This document shows, piece after piece, positions 26,809 to 45,833 of a stretch of DNA of 64,000 nucleotides. Each line of letters starts with the position of its first letter. Position 1 is the first letter of the stretch. The notes beneath the pieces are model-generated. The model worked only from the letters and a program-made list of their open reading frames with translations. It had not been told where the DNA came from and searched no databases. This DNA comes from Candidatus Rariloculaceae bacterium (GTDB taxonomy: Bacteria > Pseudomonadota > Gammaproteobacteria > Steroidobacterales > Rariloculaceae), in NCBI GenBank assembly GCA_965237785.1, contig OZ250159.1, positions 2,382,204-2,446,203 on the forward strand. The letters are read 5' to 3'. Position numbers and translations under genes: made by a program.

Positions 26809-26814
26809 GAGTAA

Positions 26815-30371: not shown

Positions 30372-30661
30372 ATGTCGGTTCCCGGATCGAGTCGCAAGTC
30401 GCGGAACGGTTTGAAGTAGGCGTCGTCGCCCCTGGCGATGGGCACCGGCACGTGCACGTAGGCCAGCGGGTGTTCGGCAGCCTGCACGATGGCATTCGCC
30501 AGGCTGACCTGGAAGCGAACATCCTGCGGGACATCGCCGCGGTCTCGCGCCGCGCAGAAATCCTGGTAGGAGATGCGCGCTTCGCGGCAATAGCCGAGTT
30601 CACCGAAACGGATTTCTGCAGGGTTGACGCCCGGTGCGAGTTCCAGCGGAACCAGGTTCAT
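30275..30661 (-). pseudogene. Truncated fragment of an unidentified enzyme gene (MetE-C/URO-D-like TIM-barrel family suspected)
   Basis: 128-aa ORF. Residues ...FGELGY...RFQVSLANA...YVHVPVPIARGDDAYF...IYLGLVHEDGPEG look like an internal segment. Its 3' end overlaps the sulfatase 3' end by 97 nt. The family assignment comes from memory only. Confidence 0.3.
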
Positions 30662-30847
30662 GCTATCGCCGATGGGCCTCAGCTAGGGGCTCGGCCGCAT
30701 GTCCGTGCTCCCTATCGTCATCTCGGGGTTGAGTGGCGGATAGTATCGTAGGGGCGCTCACGGCTGCCAGCGGTCAGAATCGCCATCGCCAATGCCACTA
30801 CAATTGCCGAACAGGTCATCCAGAGGCACAGCGATTGAAACTTTCCA

Positions 30848-30920: not shown

Positions 30921-31547
30921 ATGGCTCACGATTTGATCGACCAGCGGGATCAGGCAGTCATGAATATCTCGCGCTACCAAACCGAGCTTAAAGAGAACCC
31001 TCGGCTCGCGGCGCTGATGAAGCAGGTGCACGCATGGTATGCGGTCAGATCCGATGATTCGGCCTGGCTCTTTGCGCCGTCCAAATTCGTCGGGTATGCA
31101 GGCAACACCGCCGAAACCTACCTGTCAGAAGCCGGTGTCAGAGACGGTGGTCTGACCGAGGCTGTTCTCAAGAGTTGGTTCGACGTTGTGCCACCCTCCT
31201 CCCGTCGTCGCACCGAACTCGACAACGCGTTGCGGAAATTCCTGAACACATATGGGCATTCCGGTCCCCGAAAGGGTGCACGGATTTGCGTCCTCAAGGA
31301 GGTCCTGACCGAGGGTGTTAGCCCGGACGTTCTGGATCGCGTCCATATCGACCTTGCGATCTGTGGCGGACGCCCACATATGCGGGGCACTCGAGTCCGC
31401 GTGTCCGACATTCTGGACCTGCTGGCTAATGGAGTGACGTCGTCGGATATTCTCGCCGACTACCCCTATCTTAGCGAATCGGACCTGCGGGCGGCCCTGG
31501 CCTTTGGCGCGGCGGCAAGCGAGCACCGCGTCATCCTCGCCGCCTGA
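30921..31547 (+). CDS. DUF433 domain protein (antitoxin-like) with ~135-aa N-terminal extension
   Basis: The C-terminus ICGGRPHMRGTRVRVSDILDLLANGVTSSDILADYPYLSESDLRAALAFG matches the DUF433 pattern. I do not recognise the N-terminal domain. Confidence 0.7.
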   Translation: MAHDLIDQRDQAVMNISRYQTELKENPRLAALMKQVHAWYAVRSDDSAWLFAPSKFVGYAGNTAETYLSEAGVRDGGLTEAVLKSWFDVVPPSSRRRTELDNALRKFLNTYGHSGPRKGARICVLKEVLTEGVSPDVLDRVHIDLAICGGRPHMRGTRVRVSDILDLLANGVTSSDILADYPYLSESDLRAALAFGAAASEHRVILAA

Positions 31548-31549
31548 CC

Positions 31550-31876
31550 TTGCGTTTCCTCATCGACGCGCAATTGCCGCCGGGCCTGGCGAAGTGGCTT
31601 GCCGCGAACGGCTATCCGTCCGACCATGTCAACGATCTTGGTCTCGGTGCAGCCTCAGACAATGAGATTGAAGCCAAGGCGCGCGAGATGCAGGCAGTTA
31701 TCTGGTCGAAGGACAATGACTTTGCCGACCGGGCGCGGCGGCGCCGGGGACTGCAGGTGGTCTGGCTGCGGTTCGGCAACACCACCAATGCCTCGCTTCA
31801 GACCAAACTGGCACCGCATATGCCAGCCATTGAAGCCGCCCTGATGGATGGGGAGTCCTTGATCGAAATCAGGTGA
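31550..31876 (+). CDS. DUF5615 family PIN-like (Mut7-C-like) protein, toxin-like partner of DUF433
   Basis: MRFLIDAQLPPGLAKWLAANGY...SDNEI...WSKDNDFADR fits DUF5615. The TTG start lies 2 nt after the DUF433 stop. Confidence 0.7.
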   Translation: MRFLIDAQLPPGLAKWLAANGYPSDHVNDLGLGAASDNEIEAKAREMQAVIWSKDNDFADRARRRRGLQVVWLRFGNTTNASLQTKLAPHMPAIEAALMDGESLIEIR

Positions 31877-32037: not shown

Positions 32038-32508
32038 TTGACTGCTTCTGTGTCCCGAGTGTTGATCGTCGGCGGCGGCAACAGCCGCTTCACCGCCGGG
32101 GCGTTCCGCTGTGCGTATTCAGGGGTCGAGGACCTGGTGGAGTGCCTGGTACGCCAGTCCGCGCCGACCATGAACTGGATGCGGGACAAGGGCGTGCGGT
32201 TCATGCCGATTTATGGCCGACAGGCCTTCAAGGTCAACGGCAAGTTCACGTTCTGGGGCGGGCTGACGGTGGAAGCCGTCGGGGGGGCGGCCCCGGGCTC
32301 GTGGACAGCCTGACCGAGTCCTGCCTGAACCGCGGCATCGAGATCCAGTACGACGCGCGAGCCGTGGCACTGGCGTCCGACGGCAAGAACGTCACCGGCG
32401 TGGCGGTGCGCCGGTGCGGGGCTAATGGCGGGTGCGGTGTTCGGGAAGATCGCGGGTACTTCCGCGGCGCTGGTAGCTGCCGATCGGGCCGGTGCAGGTA
32501 GCTGTTGA
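32038..32508 (+). pseudogene. Degraded FAD-dependent oxidoreductase gene (tricarballylate dehydrogenase TcuA / fumarate-reductase flavoprotein-like)
   Basis: The pieces lie in different frames. They are VLIVGGGN|SRFTAGAFR...MNWMRDKGVRFMP...FWGG (32038-), GGPGLVDSLTESCLNRGIEIQYDARAVALASDGKNVTGVAV (32142-frame), and the C-terminal MAGAVFGKIAGTSAA... ending TGA 32506-32508. Large internal parts are missing. Confidence 0.6.
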
Positions 32509-32568
32509 CCGGACCGAGACGATGCGAATACTGCCACGCCAAGGGCTACGGAGGACAGTAGCCGCCGG

Positions 32569-32772
32569 CTACGCTCCGCCCGGGGGATCGACGGTGCGCA
32601 GGTATTCGATGCTGCTCTTGATCTCGCCGAAATCCCGGGCCGCTTCCACCCGATGTTCCGTGAGCGCATCCTCCAGCCGGTCTATGCGATTTCCGTGCAC
32701 CCGCTGAGCGTTCAGAATCAGCCCGGCGAGGATGACGCCGATGCCGATCAACCATCGCACCTCTTCTTTCAT
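32569..32772 (-). CDS. Small hypothetical membrane protein
   Basis: 67 aa from ATG 32772 (MKEEVRWLIGIGVILAGLILNA...). One TM followed by a helical tail. No motif. Confidence 0.35.
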   Translation of the reverse strand: MKEEVRWLIGIGVILAGLILNAQRVHGNRIDRLEDALTEHRVEAARDFGEIKSSIEYLRTVDPPGGA

Positions 32773-32896
32773 GCCCCCAATGTAACATACCGTTTCTCGG
32801 CCCGGCATCGCGCAAAACTGGCCCCAGAATCGAGAATGACGAGCTTGCATGGAACAACACTCTGTTCCTGCGCGTCAGCCTGACGGGATCAAAACC

Positions 32897-33304
32897 ATGA
32901 AATTGCAAATCGCAAGCGACATACATCGGGAATTCGGCCATTCGCCGGAACTGCCGGACGTGGGAGCCGACGTGCTCGTGCTGGCCGGCGACATCGGCAC
33001 GGCAGACGATGAGGCCGTGGTGTTTCTGACGGAGACGGTCAAGCCCGGCGATATCGTCATTACGCACTGGCCGCCGACCCTTAAGGCTCGGCACATGGGC
33101 ATTCCGATGGATGACATCGCCAGGTATTTCAACGCCGACATTCCGGAAGTCGTGGAGTCCACCCGGCCCGAACTGTGGATCTGCGGTCACACGCACTACA
33201 ACGTGGACTTCATGTTCGGAGAGACCCGGATTCTGTCGAATCAGGGCGGCTATCCGCACGAGACACTCACCGGATACGATCCGGGGCTGATCGTCGAGGT
33301 TTAG
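32897..33304 (+). CDS. Metallophosphoesterase-like protein, apparently internally shortened
   Basis: MKLQIASDIH (DxH), LVLAGDIG (GD), ITHWPP and ICGHTHY (GHxH) are present. The GNH(E/D) motif region is missing and the spacing is too short, so the protein is possibly inactive. Confidence 0.5.
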   Translation: MKLQIASDIHREFGHSPELPDVGADVLVLAGDIGTADDEAVVFLTETVKPGDIVITHWPPTLKARHMGIPMDDIARYFNADIPEVVESTRPELWICGHTHYNVDFMFGETRILSNQGGYPHETLTGYDPGLIVEV

Positions 33305-33346
33305 CGCCGCAATGAGTTTGCGCCTTGCCTGGCGCTTCGCTCACGC

Positions 33347-34558
33347 TCAATCCACCGGATACAGTCGCGGAAACCAGCGTTCGACGACATCGAGCGGAAA
33401 TCCAAGGCGAACCGGTGCTCGAGGTCCTTTCGACACCAGCAGTCCTTTGTTCAGAAGCGTTGAGAGAATCTCGCGCGCCCGGCGCTCCTGGTAGCCCGTT
33501 ATTTCAGGCGCTCGACCTCGCGCGACCTCGCCAATCAGCAGCGCCTCACGAAGCAAAGCCATGGAACGGGGCGGGAGTCGTCGGGCTGCTTGTTCATCGT
33601 CGGCATACAATTTCATGCGACGCAATAGCTCACCGGGTTGTAGTAGCGATCCCATGAAATCGACCTGATCGGTACATACACGCAGGAAGAACGCACAAAA
33701 TTCGTCGAGTTGCGCAGCCGACAGCGCGCCCCTTCCGTCCAAGTCTCCCTGCCTGGGAGCGTCCGCGTTAGCAAGCCTGGCCTTGTATTCGGTCGAGTTG
33801 CGCGCAAGCCCCCGGGCGACCGACCAGATACTGCTGTCTATTCCACGACGCAGAAGCAAGGCATGGGCCATGAGCCGCGCTACACGTCCATTACCGTCGT
33901 AGAACGGGTGTATCCACAAGAAGCGATGGTGCGCAGCCGCAACGGCAATGATGGCCTGCGGCGCGGACAGCCGTTCATTTTCGTACGCGGCCTGGAATCG
34001 ATCGAGAAAGACCGGCAGATCGGCAGCCGGCGGCGGCACGTGGGACCCTACCCGCACTTCGCCGTCACGAAGTTCGCCCGGCGCAACCCGCACGCGTGCA
34101 CCGGTTTCCGGGTTCTCGACCCGCAGCAGTTCGTCCGGCAACCGGCGACAAAATTCCTCGTGGACCCACCTGATGTATGTCGCCGAATAGGGAGACTCCT
34201 CGGGGTCGTCCCCGTAATCGATCAATCGCTGTACCTCGATATGCGCGCGAGCTTCAAGTTGCAGAATGCGTCTTTTCGGATCCGGGGAATAGTCGTCTGC
34301 CAAAGCCGCATCGATGTCGCGCGGCTGAGTATCGTGGCCCTCAATGAGATTCGAGTAGTAGCAATTCATCGAGCGCACGAGATCGCCGATGCTCTCGCGA
34401 ACCGTCCATTGAATCTGGCCCGACAGGTGGCTGGCCCTTGCGATCAGGTCGACGGCGAGATCTGTCAAGTCGGTGTTTCCGTCACGGGGAAACATCGGTT
34501 GCATGGCGGATGGGGTCATAACGCCGGTAATAATGCCGGTTTTTATACCGGATAACAA
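33347..34558 (-). CDS. Fic family protein (class II, N-terminal inhibitory helix), C-terminal wHTH-like tail
   Basis: Fic motif HPFYDGNGRVAR. An upstream SNLIEG fits the [ST]xxxE[GN] auto-inhibition motif. Confidence 0.85.
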   Translation of the reverse strand: MLSGIKTGIITGVMTPSAMQPMFPRDGNTDLTDLAVDLIARASHLSGQIQWTVRESIGDLVRSMNCYYSNLIEGHDTQPRDIDAALADDYSPDPKRRILQLEARAHIEVQRLIDYGDDPEESPYSATYIRWVHEEFCRRLPDELLRVENPETGARVRVAPGELRDGEVRVGSHVPPPAADLPVFLDRFQAAYENERLSAPQAIIAVAAAHHRFLWIHPFYDGNGRVARLMAHALLLRRGIDSSIWSVARGLARNSTEYKARLANADAPRQGDLDGRGALSAAQLDEFCAFFLRVCTDQVDFMGSLLQPGELLRRMKLYADDEQAARRLPPRSMALLREALLIGEVARGRAPEITGYQERRAREILSTLLNKGLLVSKGPRAPVRLGFPLDVVERWFPRLYPVD

Positions 34559-34807
34559 TCCATATAAATCAGATAATTAAAAAACAAATGGGCAGTCATC
34601 ACTGCTATAAATTGCCGATATTATTACCGGTTAAGGCTTCGGCTGTTCGCATTCGATGATTTTGCCTCGAGGCGCAGATGGAGCGATGCGGAGCGATTGA
34701 GACGAGTGCAAATGGGTGTCAAGCATGTCAGCATCCCATCCTTGGACGTGGAGCGACTGGCCGTGCATCATTGCTACGGCAAACGGGTAGCCAACAGGGA
34801 ATACCAA

Positions 34808-34867
34808 ATGACGGGCGCCGTTTTCGGAAAGATCGCAGGTACGTTCGCAGCGAGAGGAAGCGCTTGA
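34808..34867 (+). pseudogene. 3'-terminal remnant of a tcuA-like gene abutting tctC
   Basis: Encodes MTGAVFGKIAGTFAARGSA*, about 78% nt identity to 32425-32469 (MAGAVFGKIAGTSAA). Its TGA (34865-67) overlaps the tctC TTG start (34864-66). Confidence 0.5.
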
Positions 34868-35961
34868 GCACAATCGACCGAAGAAAGTTCTTAGGCTCGA
34901 CCGCGCTCGCAATGAGCGGGCTGGGTCTCCTCCCCGCCCGCAGCCAAACCCCCAACTTCTCCGGCCGCATCATCGAACTCATCATCCCCTTCAAGGAGGG
35001 CGGCGGATCCGACACCTGGGGACGCTTCAATGCCCCGTTCCTTTCACGCTACCTCCCGGGCCAGCCCACCGTGGTGGTGCGCAACGTCCCGGGCGGCAAC
35101 TCCATCGCCGGCGCCAACCGCTTCGCCGCGCGCGCCCGGCCGGACGGGCTCTCGGTGCTGGGCACGTCCGCGTCCACCCAGTTTCCCTATCTCATGGACG
35201 ATCCCCGGGTCCGATACGAGTATCGGGACTGGCGCGTCCTGATGGCCTACGGCACGGGCGGGGTCGTCTACGTTTCCGCCGATCTCGGCATCGCCGACGC
35301 AATGGGCCTCGGCCGGATCGCCGACCGGGAACTTCTCTACGGCAGCCAGGGGCCCACGTCGCTGGACCTGGTCCCGGTACTGGGGTTCGGGCTCCTCGGG
35401 CTGAACGTCCGGCCCATCTTCGGGATGAGCGGGCGCGGCGCCGGGCGGCTCTCATTCGAACGGGGCGAGGTCAATATCGACTACCAGACCTCCACCGCCT
35501 ACCTGCGCAACGTGGTGCCGCTCATCGAGCAGGGCGACGCCGTGCCGCTGTTCTCGTGGGGCGCACTCGACGGCGGCGGGAACCTGATCCGCGACCCCAC
35601 GTTCCCGGATCTGCCCCACTACGGGGAAGCCTACGAACTGCTGCATGGCGAACCGCCGAGCGGCCCCGGCTGGGAGAGCTGGTTCGCCTTCTTCACTGCG
35701 GGATTCCCGGCGCAGAAGCTGCTCGTTGCGCCCGCGGACACCCCGGACGAGATCGTTCTCGCCTACGAGGACGCGGTGCACGCCATGCGCGAGGACCCCG
35801 AATACATCGCCAGAAAGCCCGCGGCGCTCGGCACCTACGAGCAAGTGACCGGGCCCGCGGCGCAGAGAATCTACGAACTGGCCACGGACGTACCGCAAAG
35901 CGCGCGCACCTGGGTCAGGACGTGGCTCAAGGATGAATTCCGCGTAAACCTCGAGGCCTGA
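34864..35961 (+). CDS. tctC: Tripartite tricarboxylate transporter substrate-binding protein (TctC/Bug family), Tat-type signal
   Basis: TTG 34864 behind GAGAGGAAG gives MSTIDRRKFLGSTALAMSGLGLL (twin-Arg). Bug motif NVPGGNSIAGANRFAARARPDGLSVLG. The track ORF starts further upstream (34678). Confidence 0.8.
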   Translation: MSTIDRRKFLGSTALAMSGLGLLPARSQTPNFSGRIIELIIPFKEGGGSDTWGRFNAPFLSRYLPGQPTVVVRNVPGGNSIAGANRFAARARPDGLSVLGTSASTQFPYLMDDPRVRYEYRDWRVLMAYGTGGVVYVSADLGIADAMGLGRIADRELLYGSQGPTSLDLVPVLGFGLLGLNVRPIFGMSGRGAGRLSFERGEVNIDYQTSTAYLRNVVPLIEQGDAVPLFSWGALDGGGNLIRDPTFPDLPHYGEAYELLHGEPPSGPGWESWFAFFTAGFPAQKLLVAPADTPDEIVLAYEDAVHAMREDPEYIARKPAALGTYEQVTGPAAQRIYELATDVPQSARTWVRTWLKDEFRVNLEA

Positions 35962-36164
35962 TCGTTGTCCGAGTCGCTCGGCGCGCGGATCGGGTAACGG
36001 GGCCTCGAATCGTGAGACCGGTGCCTACTGCATTGGGGCCGAGAAAAGATAACCAATCCGGCAAATCGCGCGTTTACTTTACTTTTTTGGAAGAAAAATA
36101 TAACTGAACCGTCGGTATGGGCGTATAGTTACCTTTTCAATCGCGGTCCTGGAAGGGAGTCATC

Positions 36165-37925
36165 ATGACGTTCAGCGTTCGCGGAACGGAACCGATCGAC
36201 GCGCTTGTTGAGCAAGCGCTGCATCGATTGTCGCAAGGCGAGCCGCCCGAACGCATCGAACTGGAGCGGCTGGACTTCAAGGAAGAGCCGGGCCGACGAG
36301 GTTCCGATGGGACCGTTTCCCCTGGCGGGACGACCAATGAGCACGCCGCCGCGCACTTGGCGGCGGAAATGGCTTGCATGGCGAACACTCCAGGCGGCGG
36401 CGCGGTCATTGTAGGCGTCTCCGACGATGGCGCCCGGATAGGTACACGACTCGACGCGGACTGGCTCCGCCATCGCATCTGGGAGCTCACCTCGCATCAA
36501 CTGACGATCGCGGTCCGCGAGGAACGTCTTGACGAATGCCGCCTCTTGATCCTGACCTGCATCGAGGCACTCGCGCCCGTCCGCTACCGCAGGAAGCTGC
36601 GGTGGCGGGTGGGTACCAACTGCGTCGAAGTCGATCCGGTCGTCTGGCAATCGAGGATGCTGGAGAGGGTCGGCTTCGACTGGTCGGATCAGCCGTCCGG
36701 CCAGACCCTGGACGATGTGAGCCCGGCCGCCATCGAGGTTGCCCGGCGTTACCTGCGGGACGCCAACGGCGACGACTCCGCCACCAGCCTGACCAACGCC
36801 ACGGACGCCGATCTCCTCCGGCGGCTGAATCTGGTCAAGGGCTCGCGCGAGCTCACCAACGCCGGATCGCTGCTGTTCGTGGCGACTCCGTGGCCGGCCG
36901 TCGACTACATTCGCCGCGACCTGCCGGGAGGCGACAGCACGCTTCGCATTGAGGGCGCCGGGCCGCTGCTCGTGCAAGTGCGCGAGATCGAACAGGCGAG
37001 CCAGGTGGCCAATCGCGTGACGCACACGGCCGAGGGCTTCGCCCACGGCAGGCTCCGGGCGATCCCTCCCAGGACGCTGCGCGAGGCCATCGTGAACGGT
37101 CTCGTCCACCGCGACTGGCTGGCGCCGCGGCCCACCGTCATCGAGCACATCGGCGACACGCTGACCGTGACCTCGCCGGGTGGGTTCGTGGGCGGCGTGA
37201 CGCCCGACAACATCATCACCCACCCGGCGGTCCCCCGCTATCGAAACCTGTCCGAGTCCATGGCCTCTCTGGGTCTGGCCGAGCGAGAGGGGATCGGGGT
37301 CGACAGGATGGTGCGGGACATGCTCGCCATCGGGCGGCCCGCGCCGGTGATCGCGGAGATCGATGGACCCTACGTGCGAGTCGCGCTGCTCGGCGGCACC
37401 CCCGATATCGCCGTCGTCGACTTCGTGTCTGCGCTGACCCCAGCGTGGGCCGGCAGCGTGGAGTCGCTTCTGTTGATAGAACACCTGACCCGGAACGGTT
37501 GGGTGGACGCGGAGTCTGCGACTCCGTTTCTCCAGCGATCTTCGGTGGAGGAAGCCGACGAGGCGATCCGCCGACTGGCGGATGCGCGCCTGGTCGCCGG
37601 CGGTTCGGCCTCCGTGATTACGCGCGTGCAGGGGATCCCCCCGCACCAACCGGTTGCCTTTCGTCTATCCGGCTCGGTCCGGGACCGGCTCGCTCACCGG
37701 CTCGCTACGCTACGTGCCCCCGAAGGCCGCGAAGCGCTGGTTCTGGACTGGAGCCGTGCCCGGGAACGTGTCTCCTCGACCGAGGTTGCCGACCTGACGG
37801 GGCTCAGCAAGGTCTCCGCCGGCAAGCTCCTGACAAGGCTGGAAGCTGTCGGGCATCTCAAGGCGGGACGGTCCGTGCGCAGGGGCCGGGGATTCTTTTA
37901 CGTTCCGGCTGAGCCGGGGGAATGA
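36165..37925 (+). CDS. AlbA_2 (Schlafen-like) + HATPase_c_4 (RecG-C-like) + wHTH putative transcriptional regulator
   Basis: N-terminal ERIELERLDFKEE (AlbA_2 type), central REAIVNGLVHRDW (HATPase_c_4 signature) and C-terminal wHTH-like SSTEVADLTGLSKVSAGKLLTRLEAVGHL. Confidence 0.7.
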   Translation: MTFSVRGTEPIDALVEQALHRLSQGEPPERIELERLDFKEEPGRRGSDGTVSPGGTTNEHAAAHLAAEMACMANTPGGGAVIVGVSDDGARIGTRLDADWLRHRIWELTSHQLTIAVREERLDECRLLILTCIEALAPVRYRRKLRWRVGTNCVEVDPVVWQSRMLERVGFDWSDQPSGQTLDDVSPAAIEVARRYLRDANGDDSATSLTNATDADLLRRLNLVKGSRELTNAGSLLFVATPWPAVDYIRRDLPGGDSTLRIEGAGPLLVQVREIEQASQVANRVTHTAEGFAHGRLRAIPPRTLREAIVNGLVHRDWLAPRPTVIEHIGDTLTVTSPGGFVGGVTPDNIITHPAVPRYRNLSESMASLGLAEREGIGVDRMVRDMLAIGRPAPVIAEIDGPYVRVALLGGTPDIAVVDFVSALTPAWAGSVESLLLIEHLTRNGWVDAESATPFLQRSSVEEADEAIRRLADARLVAGGSASVITRVQGIPPHQPVAFRLSGSVRDRLAHRLATLRAPEGREALVLDWSRARERVSSTEVADLTGLSKVSAGKLLTRLEAVGHLKAGRSVRRGRGFFYVPAEPGE

Positions 37926-38068
37926 TTGGCGGGGCGGAGTTGGTGGCGCAACGGGTTCATGGGATCGCGCTGGGGCATGGGGACCCGGACGAGATCGTCG
38001 GCGCCTACGAGGACGCTTGGGTCAGGACGCGGCTCAAGGATGAATTCCGCGTAAACCTCGAGGCCTGA
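37922..38068 (+). pseudogene. In-frame, internally deleted 3' remnant of tctC
   Basis: Encodes MIGGAELVAQRVHGIALGHGDPDEIVGAYEDAWVRTRLKDEFRVNLEA*. Positions 37979-38016 match 35736-35774 and 38017-38068 match 35909-35961. The native stop/TTGTCCGA junction to tctA is retained. Confidence 0.6.
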
Positions 38069-38071
38069 ACA

Positions 38072-40087
38072 TTGTCCGAAGCGCTGCTCACCGCACTCGC
38101 GAATCTGGCAACGTTCGAGCACCTCTTCCACCTCGCGCTCGGCGTGATGCTGGGACTGGCGGTCGGCGCCTTCCCCGGGCTCGGCGGCATTGCCGGGCTC
38201 GCCATCATGATGCCCTTCCTGTACGGGATGGATACCGTCTCGGCGCTGGCCACGCTGGTGGGCCTGGTCGCGGTGATCCCCACATCCGATACCTTCACTT
38301 CCGTGCTCATGGGGATCCCCGGCTCAAGCGCCAGCCAGGCCACGGTGCTGGACGGCTTCCCCCTGTCGCAGCAGGGGCACGCCGCCCGTGCGCTCTCCGC
38401 CGCGTTCACCGCGTCGCTGATGGGCGGCCTCGTCGGCGCGGTGATCCTCACGCTGTTCGTGCAGGTTGCCCGCCCGCTCATCCTCACGTTCGGCTCGGCA
38501 GAACTGTTCATGCTGGCCCTGCTGGGCCTTTCCATGGTGGGCGTGCTTTCCGGGGCGAGCCTGATCAAGGGACTCGCCGCCTGCGGACTCGGGCTGATCG
38601 TCGGGTCCATCGGCGGCGCGCCCGCGACCGGCGAGTTCCGAATGACATTCGGCGTCGATTATCTCTACGACGGGCTGCCGCTGGTCATCATGGGCATCGG
38701 GCTCTTCGCCTTCCCGGAAATCACCGAACTGCTGCGCAGGAACCGCGCCATCGCTTCAAGCCGCATGCTCGCAGCGGACTGGTTCGAAGGCATTCGGGAC
38801 GTCTTCCGGCACTGGTTCCTGTGTCTGCGATGCGCGGGACTCGGCACCCTGATCGGCGCCATCCCCGGACTCGGAGGCACCGTCGTGGACTGGATCGCCT
38901 ACGGCCACGTCGTGCAGACCGCAAAGGACAAGTCCCGCTTCGGCAAGGGGGACATCCGCGGCGTGCTCGCCCCGGAGTCGGCCAACAACGCCAAGGAAGG
39001 CGGAGGACTGGTGCCGACGCTGCTCTTCGGCATTCCCGGCTCCGGCGGCATGGTGCTGCTGGGGATCGAAGCCGGGCCGGCCATGGTATCCAGCAACCTC
39101 GATCTGACCTATACGATCATCTGGTCGCTGGCGCTGGCGAACGTCCTCGGGGCGGGAAGCTGCATGCTGCTGGCCCGGCCCATTGCGCGGCTGACCACGA
39201 TCCCGTTCAACCTGCTGGCGCCGTTCATGATCGTGGTGGTCAGCTTTGCCGCGTTTCAGGCGACGCGCCAGTTCATGGACCTGGTGGCGCTGCTGGCAGT
39301 GGGGGTGTTGGGGGTGCTGCTGCGCCGGTTCGGGTGGTCGCGGCCGGCGTTTCTGATCGGATTCGTGCTTGCGCCGCAGGCCGAGGGGTATTTGAATCTG
39401 GCGGTGCAGTTTTATGGGTGGGAGATGTTGGCGCGGCCGGGGGTGTTGGTGATTCTTGGGATTACGGTGGTGTCGGTGTGGCTTGGGGCGCGTGGGCAGG
39501 GAGGCAGGGTTCAAGGTGCTCAGCCGGCGGCGGACGGATCGCGTCGAAGCCCGCCGGCCCGGAATGTCGTCCCGCAACTCGCTTTTGTCGGCGGGGCGAT
39601 TGCATTCATGGTCTACGCGGTATGGAGCAGCCTCAGGCTCTCGCCGCTGGGCCGGATATTCCCGCTGAGTGTGGCGGTAGCGACGCTGGTGTTGTGCGTT
39701 GCGTTGGTGGTGGTGTTGAGGTTGAGGCCGTCCGCCAGCCCCGCCAATGTCGACCTTGAGTACGATGCCGAAGGCGCCAATGGCGACTTCGAGCCCGATG
39801 CCGAGGCCGACCCCGGGTCGCGCGGGAGCGGTACGTGGCGAAGCGCCGGTTGGTTCGGCGTGCTGGTCGCGGCGGCGGGCTTGTTGGGCTTTCTGCCGGG
39901 CGCCCTCGTGTTCTTCCTGGCGTTTCTGAGGCGCAAGGCAAAGCAGTCCTGGGGATTGACGCTGGCGCTGACGGCTTGCGTGATCGTGGCCCTAGCGGCC
40001 GTCGCCAACCTCTTGCTGGTGGAATTGCCCGGCGGCCTGATTGCAGAATACGTCGACCAACCCTGGCTGACGGGACAAGTTCGATGA
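38072..40087 (+). CDS. tctA: Tripartite tricarboxylate transporter permease TctA with C-terminal TctB-like 4-TM extension (fusion)
   Basis: TctA-type N-terminus GAFPGLGGIAGLAIMMPFLYGMD...IPGSSASQATVLDG. At 671 aa it exceeds the roughly 500 aa typical of TctA. The last roughly 170 aa are four hydrophobic segments, and no separate tctB gene is present. Confidence 0.8.
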   Translation: MSEALLTALANLATFEHLFHLALGVMLGLAVGAFPGLGGIAGLAIMMPFLYGMDTVSALATLVGLVAVIPTSDTFTSVLMGIPGSSASQATVLDGFPLSQQGHAARALSAAFTASLMGGLVGAVILTLFVQVARPLILTFGSAELFMLALLGLSMVGVLSGASLIKGLAACGLGLIVGSIGGAPATGEFRMTFGVDYLYDGLPLVIMGIGLFAFPEITELLRRNRAIASSRMLAADWFEGIRDVFRHWFLCLRCAGLGTLIGAIPGLGGTVVDWIAYGHVVQTAKDKSRFGKGDIRGVLAPESANNAKEGGGLVPTLLFGIPGSGGMVLLGIEAGPAMVSSNLDLTYTIIWSLALANVLGAGSCMLLARPIARLTTIPFNLLAPFMIVVVSFAAFQATRQFMDLVALLAVGVLGVLLRRFGWSRPAFLIGFVLAPQAEGYLNLAVQFYGWEMLARPGVLVILGITVVSVWLGARGQGGRVQGAQPAADGSRRSPPARNVVPQLAFVGGAIAFMVYAVWSSLRLSPLGRIFPLSVAVATLVLCVALVVVLRLRPSASPANVDLEYDAEGANGDFEPDAEADPGSRGSGTWRSAGWFGVLVAAAGLLGFLPGALVFFLAFLRRKAKQSWGLTLALTACVIVALAAVANLLLVELPGGLIAEYVDQPWLTGQVR

Positions 40088-40235
40088 TGCAGCGGAAGCA
40101 GATCGCGTTGACTTGACAAACCCAATGGCAAATAATTGGCGAAGATGGATGCATACGAGGCTGCGTGAGCGGCGTTCATCGACCGCCGGGAAACCGGTTC
40201 CAGCCGTGCTGGAATATTGAAGCGTACTCGCGAGG

Positions 40236-40262
40236 AAAAGGCCCCTCAAGAAGGGGCCTTTT
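40236..40262. terminator. Bidirectional rho-independent terminator hairpin
   Basis: AAAAGGCCCCT-caaga-AGGGGCCTTTT, an 11-bp perfect stem flanked by A/T tracts on both sides. It lies 7 nt downstream of the stop of the minus-strand 196-aa ORF and about 150 nt after the tctA stop. Confidence 0.7.
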
Positions 40263-40268
40263 GCTCTT

Positions 40269-40859
40269 CTAGCGCCGCTGCGGCCGTATGATCGGTTCAC
40301 CGCGCAGCTTCTTGGCCAACAGTAACTTGCCCCCAATCTTGTACTCCCGCTTGAAGTCGCTTGGCCGACGGATTTTGTGGTGCTCAGTACGGACGTACGC
40401 GCTTTCGACGTAGAGCCTCAAGAAATTGCTGCTCTGGCGAGTCACGTCGAAATAGACCTCATAGACCAGATTCCGCCCTTGGGGATCCAGAATCTCTATT
40501 GCCAGCCAATTGCGATGGCCGGTGAAGTAACACGTTCGACCCGATGGAAGCGACCGTATGATTCCCGGCAAATTCGCCGACCAGCGGTACCGATCAATGC
40601 TAAAGCATCGCTCATTGCCTCGCTCATCAATGACCAGGCAGTCGTGTCCTATCTCAGCAAAGTCAAGTCGCTCGCCACTTGGAGGGCCAGTGGTCACGCA
40701 ATGGCTGCTGTATTGGATCAAAATACCGGCATTGATTTCAGGGTGGCGCTTAGTAGCGGGGATGGTGAATTTAATGTTCGAGTTCTGTAGGTGCCGCAGA
40801 TCATAGATATGACCAGCAACTTGCTTGGAGCCGGCCAGCTTGATTTGACGCCAATGCAC
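40269..40859 (-). CDS. Hypothetical protein (196 aa), orphan gene of islet C
   Basis: Clean ORF with its own terminator and lower G+C (32/60 at 40561-40620). No motif I recognise. Basic C-terminal tail (KKLRGEPIIRPQRR). Confidence 0.5.
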   Translation of the reverse strand: MHWRQIKLAGSKQVAGHIYDLRHLQNSNIKFTIPATKRHPEINAGILIQYSSHCVTTGPPSGERLDFAEIGHDCLVIDERGNERCFSIDRYRWSANLPGIIRSLPSGRTCYFTGHRNWLAIEILDPQGRNLVYEVYFDVTRQSSNFLRLYVESAYVRTEHHKIRRPSDFKREYKIGGKLLLAKKLRGEPIIRPQRR

Positions 40860-41073
40860 CGTGTGTCGCGTGATCTATGGTAGGCCCGTACTCGGGAGTG
40901 CAGGAGTGGCGTCTTGCACTTCCGAGAGTAGTGCGCGAACCGTGAGTCCCTGTTTGCTCTTCGGCCAGAATGCAAGCCCAACACGAATATCCCCCGGTCC
41001 GGCGGCGCCGGCAAGGCGGAAATTTCGACAAAACGGGGGGATTCGCAAGCACAGGTGAGTTGCGCCCCCTGGA

Positions 41074-41159
41074 GCCGCCAATCCGTTGCTGGTAGAACTT
41101 CCTGCGGCCCAATTGCACAATACATCGACCAACCCTGGCTGACAGGACAATTGCGATGA
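41074..41159 (+). pseudogene. Decayed 3' remnant of tctA retaining native junction to the prpF-like gene
   Basis: Aligns to 40001-40087 (...ELP..LIAEYVDQPWLTGQVR* versus ...YIDQPWLTGQLR*) with a 1-nt indel upstream. It ends in an ATGA overlap with the prpF-like start (41156). Confidence 0.55.
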
Positions 41160-42274
41160 CGCAGCGTGCGATTCCATGCATGTTCATGCGCGGCGGAACG
41201 TCCCGCGGTCCGTTTTTCCTGCTCGACGACCTGCCGGCGGATCCCCAGGTTCGCGATCGCGTGCTGCTGGCCGCCATGGGCTCGCCCGACCGGCGCCAGA
41301 TCGACGGACTAGGGGGCGCCGATATGTTGACGAGCAAGGTGGCGATGGTTAGTCCGTCGGAACGGCCGGGTATTGATGTTGACTATCGGTTCGCGCAGGT
41401 GTGGCTCGACAAGGCCATCGTTGATACGTCGCCCTCCTGCGGGAACATGCTCGCCGGCGTTGGACCGTTTGCTATTGAACGCGGGCTGGTGACTGCGGGC
41501 GGGGACGAGACACGGGTTCGTATCTTTGATGTCAACACCGGGAGCCGGATTGAGGCTATCGTCCAGACGCCGGGTGGGACGGTGACGTATGCCGGCGATG
41601 AGCGTATTGATGGGGTGCCGGGCACCGCGGCGCTGATTATGCTCAACTTTACTGATGTGGTGGGGTCCAGGTGCGGCGCGCTGTTGCCGACCGGCGCAGT
41701 TCAGGAAGAAATCGATGGGGTGCCGGTCAGTTGCGTCGATGTGGCCATGCCGATGGTGATTATGCGCGCCGGGGACCTGGGCCTCAGCGGCTACGATTCG
41801 GGTGAGATCACCGGCAATTCGGTCCTCATGCAACGAATTGAGAAGATAAGGCTTGAGGCCGGACGCCGTATGCGGCTCGGCGATGTTGCCGAATCGATCA
41901 TCCCCAAGGTCGGTATCCTGGCACCGCCGCGGCGTGGGGGCGCGGTGTATTCGTGTTACCTGACGCCGCACCACGTCCATGCCGCCCATGCGGTGACCGG
42001 CGCGATCTGTGTGGCTTGCTGTGCGGCGATCCGGGCGACCGTTGCGGGCATTGTTGCCCGGCCACCGGCAAGGCGAGGAATCGGGCCTGCCGCGAACGCC
42101 GTTGAGACCGTCCGCATCGAGCATCCTTCCGGTACCATCGACGTACGCCTGGAAACGGAGGGAGACAGTGCGGAATTGCAGGTTCGGCGTGCCGGCATTG
42201 TTCGCACGTCACGGAAGATCATGGATGGCAGGGTGTTCGTGCACGAAAGAGTCTGGTCGCAGCCTCGCTCCTGA
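41156..42274 (+). CDS. PrpF family protein (AcnD-accessory / 4-oxalomesaconate tautomerase-like isomerase)
   Basis: The N-terminus IPCMFMRGGTSRGPFF and SPSCGNMLAGVGPFA are characteristic of PrpF/GalD. Confidence 0.85.
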   Translation: MTQRAIPCMFMRGGTSRGPFFLLDDLPADPQVRDRVLLAAMGSPDRRQIDGLGGADMLTSKVAMVSPSERPGIDVDYRFAQVWLDKAIVDTSPSCGNMLAGVGPFAIERGLVTAGGDETRVRIFDVNTGSRIEAIVQTPGGTVTYAGDERIDGVPGTAALIMLNFTDVVGSRCGALLPTGAVQEEIDGVPVSCVDVAMPMVIMRAGDLGLSGYDSGEITGNSVLMQRIEKIRLEAGRRMRLGDVAESIIPKVGILAPPRRGGAVYSCYLTPHHVHAAHAVTGAICVACCAAIRATVAGIVARPPARRGIGPAANAVETVRIEHPSGTIDVRLETEGDSAELQVRRAGIVRTSRKIMDGRVFVHERVWSQPRS

Positions 42275-42940
42275 ACGCATCCGGCAGGCGTAGTAGGAAA
42301 GCACGTCAGCTTAGACAAAGCGGATGCATTCGCGGTCAAGGTAGCGCGGGCGGCCCACGTTGAGCAAGGCGAAGAAGTCTTAGCCTAGAGATTGGCACAG
42401 CAGGCAGCGTCAGCGCCGAAGGGGGGTGCGGTCGCGTTGAAGTTCAAGGAGGCGCTTTCCTGTTTCGCGACGGATTTATCGTTTAGACTCGACAACTACC
42501 GTTCCACGATCGACCCCCAAGAGGAAAGGGATCGTCGGGATTCGTAGCGACGAACAACGAATAACCGAATAGTTAGGAACCCAGATGCATTCGGCTTCCG
42601 GGAAATCAATAGCCAACAATCGCGGCGCATGGCGTGGCGAGTCCGCCCGGGTTGCTGAGCATGCCCATGTCAACGGCACGGTCACGATTCTAGCACGCCT
42701 TCTCTGCAGTTCCGTGCAGTGCAATGCATCAGTACTGCCGCTAGGGATCCAACAATGAAAGCGGACATAAAGTCGGCAATTTTTTTGGTGGAGCGATTGA
42801 ACTAGGAAACGCGTTTACGCAGGAAACAAGACGTCGAGCAAAGTTGATTCTGCTTGACAGTTGCCGCCGCCATTTACCGTTTGATGAGAACAGCAGCATA
42901 TTGATACATCAACCATAGACGATATGACTGAGGTTACCAA

Positions 42941-44065
42941 GTGCAGTTATATCAGACGCTGATCAGTCAACCAGAACACGCGCCGCCAGAGTGGAAGATC
43001 GCATGCACTCATAGCGAATCGACGTTGCATCAACTTTCGCCATATATTGGTAAGTTGAAGAGCTCAATCGCATACGATTTGATCGCAGCGTACTCAAGAA
43101 AAGGAGATGTGATCGCGGATGTATTTTGCGGCAGCGGTACGATCCCTCTGGAATCTGCGCGAATGGGACGACGTGTGTTCGCTTCCGATGCGAGCCTCTA
43201 CGCAATAGCGCTAACTAAAGGGAAATTGCGTGCTCCAGATAGCTTGGATGCGGCATTCGCAACCTTGGATAAATGTCTATTGGCAGCACGATCATATCAA
43301 GTGGACCTCCAAGACGTTCCAAAATGGGTTTGCGACTTCTATCACCCGAAAACGCTTAAAGAAACTCTAGGGCTGTTCTCTGTGCTACGTAAGCGTAGAG
43401 AATATTTTCTGCTAGCCTGTCTGCTTGGTATTTCACACCACCAACGCCCAGGCTTCTTATCATTTCCCAGTAGTCATCTTGTTCCATATTTGCGGTCAAG
43501 AAAGTATCCTAGAGACGATTATCCCGAATTGTATGAGTACCGTCCCGTGGAACCTCGTATTCGGGCAAAGGTTGAACGCGCACTAAGACGGTACGAAAGA
43601 ATCGATCCACGCTTGATTCTAGGCGTTCGGCGATCCACAGTACAATTTCTGAGCCCGCCGACAATGGTAAATTGTTTCATTACGAGCCCTCCTTATATGA
43701 ACGCCCTCGATTATGGGCGAGATAATCGGCTTCGAAATTGGTTGTTGTCCGGAAACACTCAGGAGCGAATGGACAGAGGACTCTCCGATGATGAGGGATT
43801 TCGTCGCATGATATCATCATATGCCCGAATACTTACGAAAACATTAGTAATGGGAGGTAAATGTGTGTTCGTGGTAGGCGAAAAATCCAAAAGAAAAACT
43901 GACAGGTTTCCGTCGGAGACTATTTCTGAAATAATGGATCACTTGGCACCAAGTTTGCGACTTGAAGAAATCATAAGTGATAGTATCCCTGACATTAGAC
44001 GTTCGCGGCGCCATCTAACCGGTGTGCGGACAGAAAACATTTTAGTTTACGAACGAAACTCTTAG
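42941..44065 (+). CDS. DNA amino-methyltransferase (N6-adenine or N4-cytosine), motif I before motif IV
   Basis: GDVIADVFCGSGTIPLESARMGRRVFASD (AdoMet motif I region) lies about 180 aa before CFITSPPYMNALDY (motif IV, SPPY). GTG start behind GAGG. Low G+C. Confidence 0.8.
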   Translation: MQLYQTLISQPEHAPPEWKIACTHSESTLHQLSPYIGKLKSSIAYDLIAAYSRKGDVIADVFCGSGTIPLESARMGRRVFASDASLYAIALTKGKLRAPDSLDAAFATLDKCLLAARSYQVDLQDVPKWVCDFYHPKTLKETLGLFSVLRKRREYFLLACLLGISHHQRPGFLSFPSSHLVPYLRSRKYPRDDYPELYEYRPVEPRIRAKVERALRRYERIDPRLILGVRRSTVQFLSPPTMVNCFITSPPYMNALDYGRDNRLRNWLLSGNTQERMDRGLSDDEGFRRMISSYARILTKTLVMGGKCVFVVGEKSKRKTDRFPSETISEIMDHLAPSLRLEEIISDSIPDIRRSRRHLTGVRTENILVYERNS

Positions 44066-44066
44066 T

Positions 44067-45803
44067 ATGAGAAAGAACCTGCCGGATCCGGACCATTTCT
44101 TAGGGGTAATTCTACCTCAATTCCAAAATTATCGAATTGTTGAGAGGGTCGGTTCAGGGTTCAACGGACACGTTTATCGAGCACATTCAAAGGAGATAGA
44201 GGGTGATTTGGCGTTCAAGTTTGTGCCGACGGAAAATCTTCCGGCGGACCCAGAGCGACGCGGCATCTACTTGGCGGAGGCAAAAAAGGCTAACTCGCTG
44301 GAGAATGAATGTGTTGTCCGATACGTAGAAGTTCTACCCTGGGAGGATGATGCGTTACGCCGAACTTTTGTCGTATTTGTATGTCAGTATGTATCAGGCA
44401 CCTCTTTGCAGGAATTCATAAAGAAGAAGCGTAACGAAATTAGCGTCGCCTTTATAGAAACATTTTTGAGGACGATGTTTGGCTTGCTCTTTGAACTCGA
44501 TCAGCGCGACATGGAACATGGAGACCTCCATGCTGGAAATGTACTTGTATCACAATCGAAATATAGTCTTAGCGGCGAGGCAACATTCAAAGTCACTGAC
44601 TTCGGAATCACCGAAATAACCGGTATGACTCATACCAGCGATTATTTGTTCGTGGCCCGAATACTTAGGGATTTGCTAAAGCGCACTAACTACCATGAAC
44701 AGCAATCGCGTGATCGGTACGTATACGATATTTTGCGACTTGACTTTTTGGGACGGCATCTCATAGAAACGGATCCATTGGCGGACCCATTGGCGCGCAA
44801 TCCGCGAAATCTAAATAAAAAACTACTGTCGGTTGATGACGAGTTTCTCGAGGCTACAAAAAATCATACAGTGACCAAAATGGTCACTCCGTTTGACTAT
44901 CCTAATTGCGAACAAATGGGTAATTCCCATCTGCTGATGAGGAACTTATATTCGGATCGACTATTAGGATTAAGGGAAATTCGTGCTAGGTCAAACCTAG
45001 TGCTCACTGGCCCACGAGGTTGTGGAAAAACAACTGTCTTCCGTGCGTTGAGTCTGGACTATCTGACCTCTGTCGATGCCGATGGTCCAGCAAGGCTCCA
45101 ATTCTCTGGTGTCTACTATCGTTGCGACGATTTGTATTTTTCTTTCCCACGCTATGAATTGCCGAAACGGCCAGACGCAATCGACATTCCGATGCATTTT
45201 GTTGTTGTTAGTCTAATGGCTGAAACGTTGCGCCATGTAGGTGCTTGGGCAAAAGGGCATTTCGAGCCAGAGTTTCGCAAAAAAGAGTCTACGGTAACTG
45301 CAAAGCTGTGGAAAATTTTAGGTTTCACGCAGCCTACTGATCCCGCGGCACGTGGCTTTTCACCTTTGATTGCGAAACTCATGAAACAGCGAGCTAGAGC
45401 GGCGAAGAAGCAACGTCTTTGCCATCTGCCTGGTCAGCCAATTAAAGGCTATCTTGGCCCTAGAGCGCTAGTCGATTTTTGTGGGGAACTAATTTCGACA
45501 TTTTCTTTTCTGCGTGAACGACCGTTTTTCTATTTTATCGATGATTATTCGACACCAAAAATTACATCGGACCTACAGCTAAATCTCAATAGGCTATTTA
45601 TGCATCGAAGCTGCGATGTGTTTTTCAAGCTTTCTACAGAGAGTCCAATTTCGTTCGAGCGTCGAGATATTGATGGTAAACAATTCGTTGAAGAGCGCGA
45701 ATTTGATCTGTTAAATTTAGGGTTACGTTATCTTGGGCATAATGGCATGCAAGTGCAGGTCTTCCTTGGGGATCTTTTCGAACGTCGTTTTCGAGAGGTG
45801 TAA
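44067..45803 (+). CDS. Ser/Thr protein-kinase-like domain fused to P-loop (AAA/ORC-like) NTPase
   Basis: Kinase motifs: GSGFNGHVY, LAFKF, HGDLHAGNVLV, KVTDFGITE. NTPase motifs: Walker A LTGPRGCGKTT and Walker B-like FFYFIDDY. The ATG lies 1 nt after the MTase stop. The ORF ends at TAA 45801-45803, which is followed by a same-frame ORF. Confidence 0.75.
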   Translation: MRKNLPDPDHFLGVILPQFQNYRIVERVGSGFNGHVYRAHSKEIEGDLAFKFVPTENLPADPERRGIYLAEAKKANSLENECVVRYVEVLPWEDDALRRTFVVFVCQYVSGTSLQEFIKKKRNEISVAFIETFLRTMFGLLFELDQRDMEHGDLHAGNVLVSQSKYSLSGEATFKVTDFGITEITGMTHTSDYLFVARILRDLLKRTNYHEQQSRDRYVYDILRLDFLGRHLIETDPLADPLARNPRNLNKKLLSVDDEFLEATKNHTVTKMVTPFDYPNCEQMGNSHLLMRNLYSDRLLGLREIRARSNLVLTGPRGCGKTTVFRALSLDYLTSVDADGPARLQFSGVYYRCDDLYFSFPRYELPKRPDAIDIPMHFVVVSLMAETLRHVGAWAKGHFEPEFRKKESTVTAKLWKILGFTQPTDPAARGFSPLIAKLMKQRARAAKKQRLCHLPGQPIKGYLGPRALVDFCGELISTFSFLRERPFFYFIDDYSTPKITSDLQLNLNRLFMHRSCDVFFKLSTESPISFERRDIDGKQFVEEREFDLLNLGLRYLGHNGMQVQVFLGDLFERRFREV

Positions 45804-45833
45804 GATTTTCCCTGTAAGACACTTGTAGAACTC

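Follow-up and report, generated by a model that had tools for sequence, protein, structure and literature searches.

The 64,000-nucleotide (nt) stretch of contig OZ250159.1 analysed here (positions 2,382,204 to 2,446,203 in assembly GCA_965237785.1 of a Candidatus Rariloculaceae bacterium; hereinafter, the window) carries between 32 and 42.3 kb a tricarboxylate operon with four genes, all on the forward strand: a tcuA pseudogene, a tctC-like gene, a tctA-tctB fusion and a PrpF-family gene. Each of the three gene junctions of this operon is split by a small islet of unrelated genes, and the junction sequence recurs on both sides of the islet. This arrangement was reported in an initial annotation made from the sequence alone; we analysed it by self-alignment and by comparison with related loci, which are denoted below by L-numbers. 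The features of the locus, in window coordinates, are the following.

32038-32508, forward: tcuA pseudogene (flavin adenine dinucleotide-dependent tricarballylate dehydrogenase), with three internal deletions compared to intact orthologues and an altered C-terminal tail
32424-32469, forward: left copy of junction 1 (tcuA-tctC), 46 nt of the tcuA 3' end, delimited by alignment
32470-34806, mixed strands: islet 1, altered tcuA tail with junction-like tandem scars, metallophosphoesterase pseudogene and Fic gene
32849-33304, forward: metallophosphoesterase pseudogene, internally deleted, PDC-S10-like in PADLOC
33347-34558, reverse: intact Fic gene (PADLOC SoFic, E 4e-28)
34807-34867, forward: right copy of junction 1, the native tcuA 3' remnant, delimited by alignment to the left copy and to L005
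34864-35961, forward: tctC-like periplasmic binding protein gene, intact, with a weak, below-cutoff match to Pfam TctC
35736-35978, forward: left copy of junction 2 (tctC-tctA), comprising the tctC 3' end, the stop codon and the first 14 nt of tctA (TTGTCCGAGTCGCT)
35979-37983, forward: islet 2, consisting of a 586-aa gene behind an AT-rich leader
36165-37925, forward: 586-aa gene with AlbA_2/Schlafen and HATPase_c_4 domains and a weak, below-cutoff match to MarR_2 (helix-turn-helix)
37984-38085, forward: right copy of junction 2; the tctC 3' remnant is in frame and lacks 136 nt internally, and the native stop and tctA start follow
38072-40087, forward: tctA-tctB fusion gene, 671 aa, intact
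40003-40095, forward: left copy of junction 3 (tctA-prpF), running from the tctA 3' end through the ATGA overlap to nt 12 of prpF
40096-41073, mixed strands: islet 3, a 12-nt linker and a discrete 969-nt module (40106-41074)
40106-40268, forward: conserved noncoding element of about 165 nt, promoter-led and terminator-ended, adjoining the PF27200 gene
40269-40859, reverse: PF27200-family gene, 196 aa, the family being taken from the precomputed annotation of homologues
41074-41166, forward: right copy of junction 3, which begins about 83 nt before prpF (-83) with a tctA 3' remnant and runs through the native ATGA junction into the start of prpF
41156-42274, forward: PrpF-family gene, intact (NCBIfam 4-oxalomesaconate tautomerase, 477 bits)

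The repeat pairs were checked by self-blastn of the whole window and by a separate repeat search, which agree on pairs 2 and 3, and self-alignment reproduced all three pairs in the order originally described, that is, copy of the upstream gene, islet, remnant with the native junction, next gene. Pair 2 is recovered as two separate blastn blocks (35911-35978 versus 38018-38085, 68 nt, 93% identity, E 2e-21, and 35742-35774 versus 37984-38016, 33 nt, 91% identity), as expected of the internally deleted copy that the initial annotation had recognized; this remnant retains the TGA and the TTGTCCGA start of tctA and lies inside a 48-codon open reading frame (ORF; 37922-38068) that starts, with an ATGA overlap, on the stop codon of the AlbA_2 gene. 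Pair 3, which had been said to include the first prpF codons and a small indel, indeed aligns over 92 columns with one gap (40003-40094 versus 41076-41166; 83% identity, E 1e-18), the left ATGATGCAGCG corresponding to the right ATGACGCAGCG. The exact cores are 38 nt long in pair 2 and 19 nt long in pair 3. For pair 1, the existence of the repeat stands but the span and strength originally given to it do not: the match is confined to 46 nt (32424-32469 versus 34807-34852; 37/46 = 80% identity) and misses the blastn threshold of E<1e-3. It is the best non-self match of the 60-nt remnant in the window, with a score of 45 compared to a maximum of 26 among 2925 random windows. The TGA of this remnant overlaps the TTG start of tctC (gcgcTTGAgc), exactly as had been noted, and the remnant forms a 19-codon mini-ORF from the ATG at 34808 that reads MTGAVFGKIAGTFAARGSA up to the stop. 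In L005, tcuA and tctC are fused through the TTGA overlap, and the last codons of the intact tcuA together with this overlap align with window positions 34808-34867, GAGAGGAAGCGCTTGA included.

The native junctions are TTGA (tcuA-tctC), TGA-nn-TTG (tctC-tctA) and ATGA (tctA-prpF), and the left copies in all three pairs extend 10-25 nt into the downstream gene. Therefore, the duplicated unit is the junction itself rather than the upstream 3' end only; the initial description of duplicated upstream 3' ends was correct in that the duplication is real but too narrow in that the unit also spans the junction. None of the inverted repeats detected in the window coincides with any islet end.

The left tcuA copy is decayed, as first proposed, its three internal deletions each being bounded by 7-12 nt microhomologies; the intact orthologue in L005 matches the NCBIfam TcuA model NF006130 with 589 bits. 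The other operon genes show low ratios of nonsynonymous to synonymous divergence (dN/dS) compared to relatives (0.09-0.18 for tctC, 0.12-0.16 for tctA and about 0.17 for prpF), and purifying selection still acts on these flanking genes. For the cargo genes overall, dN/dS is 0.18-0.36 (0.21 for the AlbA_2 gene in the comparison with L106), and the operon and cargo genes appear to be functional, save for tcuA and the metallophosphoesterase gene. The tctC-like protein has a twin-arginine-type N-terminus (RRKF), read by eye. Exact-protein look-ups for the window TctA and PrpF gave no record. Promoter and terminator scans yielded counts at or below those of shuffled sequence and are therefore uninformative with respect to co-transcription.

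A scan for TctA in reference genomes and metagenomes produced 104 loci, of which about 30 related ones were compared with the window. In 17 more distant loci (TctA 71-85% identical), the operon has the compact form tcuA-tctC-tctA/B-prpF, with gaps of -4/+2/-4 nt, and junctions expanded by 75-4467 nt are seen only in the closest clade (TctA 86-95% identical), which consists of uncultured Gammaproteobacteria, some of them labelled Candidatus Rariloculaceae. The compact operon is thus the ancestral state. Empty sites exist also within the clade, at tcuA-tctC in L005 and at tctA-prpF in L002, L062 and L100-102. At tctC-tctA, no pristine site was found within the close clade; where cargo is lacking (L003, L004, L001, L062, L099 and L105), the spacer consists of 1-3 extra degenerate junction units, each of which opens with a pseudo-tctA start and closes with a pseudo-tctC stop, so that this junction is cargo-free but scarred. 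Single-copy, uninterrupted targets are represented by L005, L092, L093 and L103 for tcuA-tctC and by L092, L093, L103 and other outgroups for tctC-tctA. The claim that the islets are insertions into operon junctions is thereby upheld, and the polarity, which the initial annotation had left to a comparison with relatives, is settled by the related loci.

The islets are about 1.0-2.3 kb long and, as first stated, encode no integrase or transposase: a domain scan of the islet ORFs, alternative frames included, revealed no recombinase or transposase domain, and no recombinase was found in or beside the islets of at least 15 related loci. There was no match to Phage_integrase among the window ORFs scanned, and the only transposase found, of the DDE_3 type (49457-50209), is located 7 kb outside the operon region discussed here. 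The window contains no tRNA genes and no Rfam matches; attC-like inverted repeats were not seen at the islet ends, where no dedicated attC model search was made. The orientation of the cargo is mixed, and each cargo apparently has its own promoter region or terminator. The earlier conclusion that the insertions come with long duplications (from tens to about 250 nt) and carry no recombinase, a pattern that short target-site duplications do not explain, holds.

The junction copies are old. All three remnants of the window are orthologous to those of L049, with the same boundaries, the same internal deletion and shared substitutions: at junction 1, the two remnants have the same first base, after a common GGAATACCAA; at junction 2, they have the same internal deletion and the same TGG-to-CGG change; at junction 3, they have a common GCCCAATTGCACAATAC where the real genes have GCCTGATTGCAGAATAC. 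The duplications must accordingly be older than the divergence of the two lineages, between which the synonymous divergence (dS) is about 0.3. The notion of three separate or recent events in this genome did not survive this comparison, the remnants having been inherited together with those of L049. The copies within a genome sometimes share variants, both window copies having GTAAACC and both L049 copies GTGAATC, which suggests gene conversion between them. If so, identity between copies is not a clock; the observed 78-95% identity reflects a mixture of age, selection that is relaxed on the remnants, and what appears to be gene conversion.

The cargo, in turn, is subject to turnover. A full-length AlbA_2 gene is present in the window, L106 and L110, and versions with an N-terminal deletion in L002, L005 and L109; L049 and L091 retain only its leader, with two prpF fragments joined in. 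At junction 3, the window, L105, L106 and L110 have the PF27200 module, L003, L004 and L005 have a TacA-GNAT pair, and L001 and L049 have other ORFs; in L002 and L109, the PF27200 module is found at junction 1 instead. Phd-MazF pairs are also among the cargo of relatives. At tctA-prpF, the right boundaries fall at about -83/-69, at -29 and at -16 to -21, and the left boundaries at +10 to +24, and these differences imply several events or rearrangements. The proposal of site-directed insertion is not supported, given these three classes of right boundaries and the lack of a motif common to the three junction sequences.

Stacked arrangements also occur. In L105, tctA is followed by a junction copy, a cargo consisting of a 327-aa gene, TacA and a GNAT toxin, a second junction copy (-21..+12), the PF27200 module, a third junction copy (-83) and prpF. 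The middle copy joins, at +12, the right end of an L003-type islet to the left end of one of the window type, so that L105 looks like the product of homologous recombination inside the junction core of about 28 nt. At tctA-prpF, there are three junction copies in L001 and four in L049; the latter (13092-16381) contains a tandem of 1.6-kb units of junction remnant plus prpF, 89.5% identical to each other with dS of 0.37, and a third prpF fragment, each prpF copy being preceded by a junction copy. Tandem amplification is accordingly part of the dynamics of the locus. Divergence also differs between the genes on either side of the junctions: L003 compared to L002 and L005 shows dS of 0.11-0.13 for tctA and 0.43-0.49 for tctC, and prpF dS is about twice the tctA dS in the same genome pairs. 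These incongruent dS matrices, together with the L105 joint between two loaded alleles, lend indirect support to the import of a foreign allele, one of the two options considered in the initial annotation.

Illegitimate joints are also seen here. In L049, one of the two prpF fragments between tctC and tctA (8981-9140) is joined to a pseudo-tctA start through a 12-nt microhomology, CTGCTGGCCGCC. Self-alignment of the window further identified the following feature, which the initial annotation did not include.

28116-28233, forward: internal tctC fragment of 115 nt, 97% identical to 35256-35370

This fragment lies between a low-GC islet (alcohol dehydrogenase and acyl-CoA dehydrogenase, 25780-28164) and a conserved DCC1 upstream region, and relatives match the stretch only through their own tctC; it has the appearance of templated filler where an illegitimate joint was made. 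Of five deletions examined, four occurred between direct repeats of 7-12 nt (three in tcuA and one in the metallophosphoesterase gene), and non-functional DNA at the locus is trimmed by deletions between such microhomologies. In L109, tctA is itself a pseudogene with two internal deletions. As a side observation, pseudogenes of this lineage (30372-30720, 32038-32508 and 32849-33304 in the window, and tctA in L109) decay through several internal deletions rather than through point mutations or frameshifts. The DUF433/PIN pair (30921-31876) was considered as another insertion with an empty site in L062 and rejected, the state in L062 being a deletion between GCCAGC microhomologies.

The Escherichia coli Chi octamer GCTGGTGG occurs 11 times in the window compared to 2.3 occurrences expected (5-fold over-representation), including 40015-40022 and 38254-38261, with 6 of the 7 sites before 41 kb on the forward strand and all 4 sites after 50 kb on the reverse strand. 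The site at 40015-40022 is located at the left edge of the junction 3 duplication, and the L049 remnant starts exactly there; the window remnant has GCTGGTAG. This excess may be explained by codon usage and is not relied upon here. The region displays microhomology joints, filler DNA and differing allele histories across the junctions; the three islets of the window are too old for their original joints to be legible.

Islet 3 merits separate consideration. Its 196-aa protein matched nothing in the local Pfam, PADLOC or NCBIfam libraries, but 81 homologues of near-constant length were collected from many Proteobacteria, usually encoded by singleton genes or within islands of defence or toxin-antitoxin genes. 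W3, H23, S52-H53, D78, R84, R90 and C110 are among the invariant residues. The AlphaFold model is confident (pLDDT 88.6, pTM 0.84), and a Foldseek comparison with PDB chains gave no match (best E 0.18, TM <0.25). The protein was considered as a hidden recombinase or nuclease, and the structure prediction gave evidence neither way. The adjoining noncoding element is 84-85% identical at the nucleotide level in L111 and L115, where the PF27200 protein is only about 65% identical. It is kept in L049 though the PF27200 gene is deleted there, and L115 has a second copy of the element without the gene. The element contains the best sigma-70-like site of the region (TTGACT-17-AATAAT, 40108-40136) and four predicted hairpins with 3 compensatory pairs, and its end is marked by a bidirectional terminator hairpin directly past the PF27200 stop codon; it belongs to no Rfam family, with only sub-threshold Rfam matches near 40200-40280. 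The candidate product is a new small RNA (40140-40268) that would be paired with PF27200 genes and might resemble an antitoxin.

A distant PF27200 homologue in L111 lies about 3.4 kb from a phage-type integrase gene. The 155 nt to the left of the module in L002 were examined as possibly derived from junction 3 and turned out to match other islet 1 pieces instead (L005, L062 and L091). In an unrelated toxin-antitoxin island in L107, the PF27200 module and a PIN gene are enclosed by 64-nt direct repeats (5268-5331 and 6756-6819, in the orientation of the window); the repeat corresponds to the 3' end of a MazE-like antitoxin gene, and the copies are 94% identical. Here, too, an insert may be surrounded by a long duplicated gene 3' end.

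What process could have produced this locus? The explanation that we regard as probable, by a modest measure, combines recombinase-independent insertion with long target duplication, a selective filter that keeps both overlapping genes, and subsequent homologous recombination, conversion, tandem amplification and microhomology-mediated deletion acting on the junction copies. Under this scenario, the ancestral compact operon would have been split at each junction by small modules of the defence or toxin-antitoxin type that lack a recombinase, leaving on both sides of the insert a junction-spanning stretch comprising the last 45-250 nt of the upstream gene and the first 10-25 nt of the downstream gene. 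With the junction on both sides, the upstream gene would keep its own end and stop codon and the downstream gene its native start context. The primary insertions would have proceeded through recombinase-independent illegitimate joining, either by homology-facilitated illegitimate recombination, with the illegitimate joint falling inside the anchor, or by a template switch that re-copied the junction. In the former case, a donor with a homologous anchor in the upstream gene would recombine on the left and be joined illegitimately on the right, and a joint within the anchor would duplicate the junction. Because overlapping stop and start codons leave no neutral insertion point, selection would retain only insertions in which the junction is duplicated or the tail of the gene replaced, and such survivorship would account for the constant order of left gene, insert, remnant with the native junction and next gene. 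The junction copies could then serve as portable homology, through which homologous recombination would move, stack, amplify, convert and delete cargo.

Several points weigh against this explanation. The primary insertion steps are ones that we infer, from sequence comparison. At tcuA-tctC, L002 and L003 have insertions without duplication, the tcuA tail being replaced and a new stop donated. The left copies end only 10-29 nt into the downstream gene, with at least 5 different boundaries; this tight cluster could reflect a site preference, and deletion trimming is possibly insufficient to produce it. All examples in the 64-kb window and in flanks of about 20 kb in the relatives lie in one operon, and an untargeted general process would be expected to strike other operons too. 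The whole-gene tandem duplication in L049 is a further difficulty. Finally, the ends of the PF27200 module are identical in two junction contexts (junction 3 of the window and junction 1 of L002 and L109), as might be expected if the module moved as a discrete unit. For the left end, there is a functional explanation, since it falls on the -35 box of a promoter. The cluster of left boundaries, the confinement to one operon and the defined ends of the PF27200 module keep a targeted mechanism alive at low probability.

Among the rival explanations, an assembly artefact in which strain variants of the operon were concatenated might be suspected because the sequence probably comes from a metagenome assembly, the copies have diverged to the extent that alleles would and the GC content is patchy. 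It is effectively refuted, with a negligible residual probability: L110, from an independent long-read assembly, is 99.8% identical over window positions 32290-48859 (16.6 kb) and has the same repeats; L106, from another species, shows 88% identity and the same order from tctC as far as the pair 3 remnant; orthologous remnants are found in L049 and L105; and the inserts are non-homologous genes under purifying selection, not allelic copies. Tandem duplication coming first, by unequal crossing-over between operon segments or through import of a tandem second allele, with the extra copy decaying and unrelated genes later landing in the dispensable spacer, is unlikely. The two full prpF copies and the third fragment in L049, each after a junction copy, the cargo-free tandem junction units at tctC-tctA, and the shrinkage of local pseudogenes through multiple internal deletions, of the kind also seen in the pair 2 remnant, all fit this course of events. 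Under the initial annotation, full tandem paralogues in relatives would have spoken for ordinary paralogue decay, and L049 does possess them for prpF, but the foreign cargo and the empty sites are still left unexplained by it. A sensitive search found no further fragments of tcuA, tctC or tctA upstream of the window remnants, and a decayed full paralogue was therefore not adopted for the window; the left copies stop 10-29 nt into the downstream gene, so that the duplicated unit was probably short. Moreover, two events per junction would be needed, with the insertion exactly between the copies, at three junctions, and the joint inheritance of the same cargo-remnant boundaries would be unexplained.

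It is improbable that the islets are decayed site-specific integrative elements that originally encoded an integrase along with a surrogate 3' end of the target and later lost the integrase. Such elements do produce the order of intact gene, insert and native 3' remnant; pairs 2 and 3 do have exact cores, of 38 and 19 nt, rampant deletion makes the loss of the integrase plausible, and the integrase near the L111 homologue of PF27200 is suggestive. Nevertheless, no recombinase was found in or next to the islets of at least 15 related loci, three unrelated junction sequences within 6 kb would need three specificities, right boundaries of -83, -29 and -16 at tctA-prpF are not what a single crossover core predicts, and L105 is accounted for by homologous recombination in the junction core. 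Dedicated machinery, encoded elsewhere in the genome or by the cargo, that targets coupled stop/start junctions and copies the junction with each cassette, resulting in an integron-like array without attC, appears quite improbable. The arrays of alternating junctions and cargo in L105, L001 and L049, the left boundaries clustered at +10 to +29, the use of all three operon junctions, and the PF27200 module, with its ends defined in two contexts and its confident fold without a PDB match, would be compatible with such machinery. Yet no motif is common to the three junctions or to the cargo ends, the cargo is of mixed orientation with an apparent promoter region or terminator of its own, other overlapping junctions in the window are untouched, and known processes (homologous recombination, microhomology joints and selection) suffice. 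A broader conjecture, which we also consider improbable, is that coupled gene junctions are reusable docking sites for defence and toxin-antitoxin cassettes without recombinases, each entry copying the junction, the copies serving as recombination sites of an integron-like array and the remnant mini-ORFs being kept open for translational coupling. The remnants are open frames that end at the native stop, and the 48-codon ORF at junction 2 begins on the cargo stop codon; in L106, a stop is preserved there despite a double change from TGA to TAG, and bridge ORFs of 46 codons are present in L001 and L105. Selection for translational coupling may be at work, but this evidence is weak because open frames arise easily by chance at 65% GC.

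Of the known systems, the closest to recombinase-independent insertion with junction duplication as proposed here is insertion with long target duplication. It is said to have been first described by Nobusato et al. in 2000, from a whole-genome comparison in Helicobacter pylori.

A later survey of such insertions (Furuta, Abe and Kobayashi 2010; PMC2853133) selected inserts of <20 kb without mobility genes, flanked by direct repeats of >30 bp and with a single copy in the empty allele; its repeats were 46-423 bp long, the Haemophilus examples overlapped a gene 3' end by 2-15 bp, and its authors proposed amplification through the repeats (PMC2853133). The loci described here likewise have repeats of >30 bp, a single-copy empty target and inserts of <20 kb without mobility genes; there is no transposase or integrase, the repeats, from 46 to about 250 nt, are far above the target duplications of transposons, and the stacks and tandem units fit the proposed amplification. 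The survey also screened for restriction-modification cargo, a screening rather than mechanistic criterion, whereas the cargo here consists of a SoFic-like Fic gene, an AlbA_2/HATPase_c_4 gene and a PF27200 gene, with TacA-GNAT and Phd-MazF in relatives. Other differences are that three adjacent junctions of one operon are hit, that the unit spans overlapping stop and start codons, and that the events are old and can be compared in at least 15 genomes, with stacking, scars and turnover; the hypothesis of the survey that breaks made by restriction enzymes drive insertion is not obviously applicable here.

[quoted passage not shown] The likeness lies in an upstream anchor entering together with new cargo, the old 3' part being pushed downstream, where it persists as a remnant, arrays building up over repeated rounds, and no integrase being involved. 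In contrast to those arrays, in which a functional toxin tip or immunity gene is displaced and the 3' end of one gene is diversified, the neighbours here are metabolic and transport genes, both of which stay intact, and the remnant is a non-functional copy.

Integrative elements that rebuild the 3' end of their target, such as phage 21 and e14 in icd and islands in tRNA and tmRNA genes, depend on a site-specific recombinase and a fixed crossover core. The arrangement of surrogate 3' end, insert and diverged native remnant and the accumulation of partial targets are similar here, but no recombinase was found and the boundaries vary between independent insertions. Integron arrays resemble the locus in having serial cargos split by a repeated sequence, with toxin-antitoxin and defence genes among the cargo; they differ in that here no IntI is present in the ORFs examined, the cargo is of mixed orientation with its own promoters, and the repeat is the host's own gene junction. 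A transposon or insertion sequence was considered and rejected: the islets have no terminal inverted repeats or transposase and do not show the pattern of 2-14 bp target duplications.

The operon is embedded in a region (25.7-63 kb) that is a GC mosaic (42-70%) rich in defence genes, including a DUF433/PIN pair, a DNA methyltransferase, a kinase with an ORC/CDC6-like ATPase, a CARF-like protein, type I restriction-modification S and R subunits, HepT and a UvrD-like helicase. A low-GC (about 45%) defence islet lies right after prpF and consists of the methyltransferase gene (42941-44065), the kinase/ATPase gene and the CARF-like gene (46456-47595). The kinase/ATPase gene is present as two ORFs in the window (44067-45803 and 45834-46565) and as a single 832-aa ORF in L110; the difference stems from a sequencing error in one of the assemblies or from a genuine frameshift. 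The other direct repeats in the window, namely 50283-50357/51141-51215 and 50912-50964/51719-51771, belong to the type I specificity (HsdS) gene (50188-51852, reverse strand) as its internal conserved repeats; its neighbours are the HepT toxin gene (51849-52385) and HsdR (54006-56483). A segment of L107 (9153-12720, in the orientation of the window) is 92-95% identical to window positions 56810-59938, which encode the UvrD-like helicase, and has an internal 560-nt direct repeat in L107. Given that L107 carries the PF27200 module in another context and also shares this block (56.8-59.9 kb), blocks of defence islands are shuffled between related genomes.

How defence and toxin-antitoxin genes without recombinases move is an open question in defence-island research. 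The organisms are uncultured and the primary events old, which limits the value of the locus, and the mechanism of primary insertion is unproven; the insertions themselves are real, recombinase-less, old, inherited and reshuffled. The locus provides three such insertions in one operon, followed across at least 15 genomes, with empty, loaded, stacked and scarred states of the same junctions, and it extends the long target duplication mode to non-restriction cargo. It also yields a testable rule, namely that overlapping stop and start codons force duplication of the junction, and suggests that the duplicated junction later becomes portable homology for cassette exchange.

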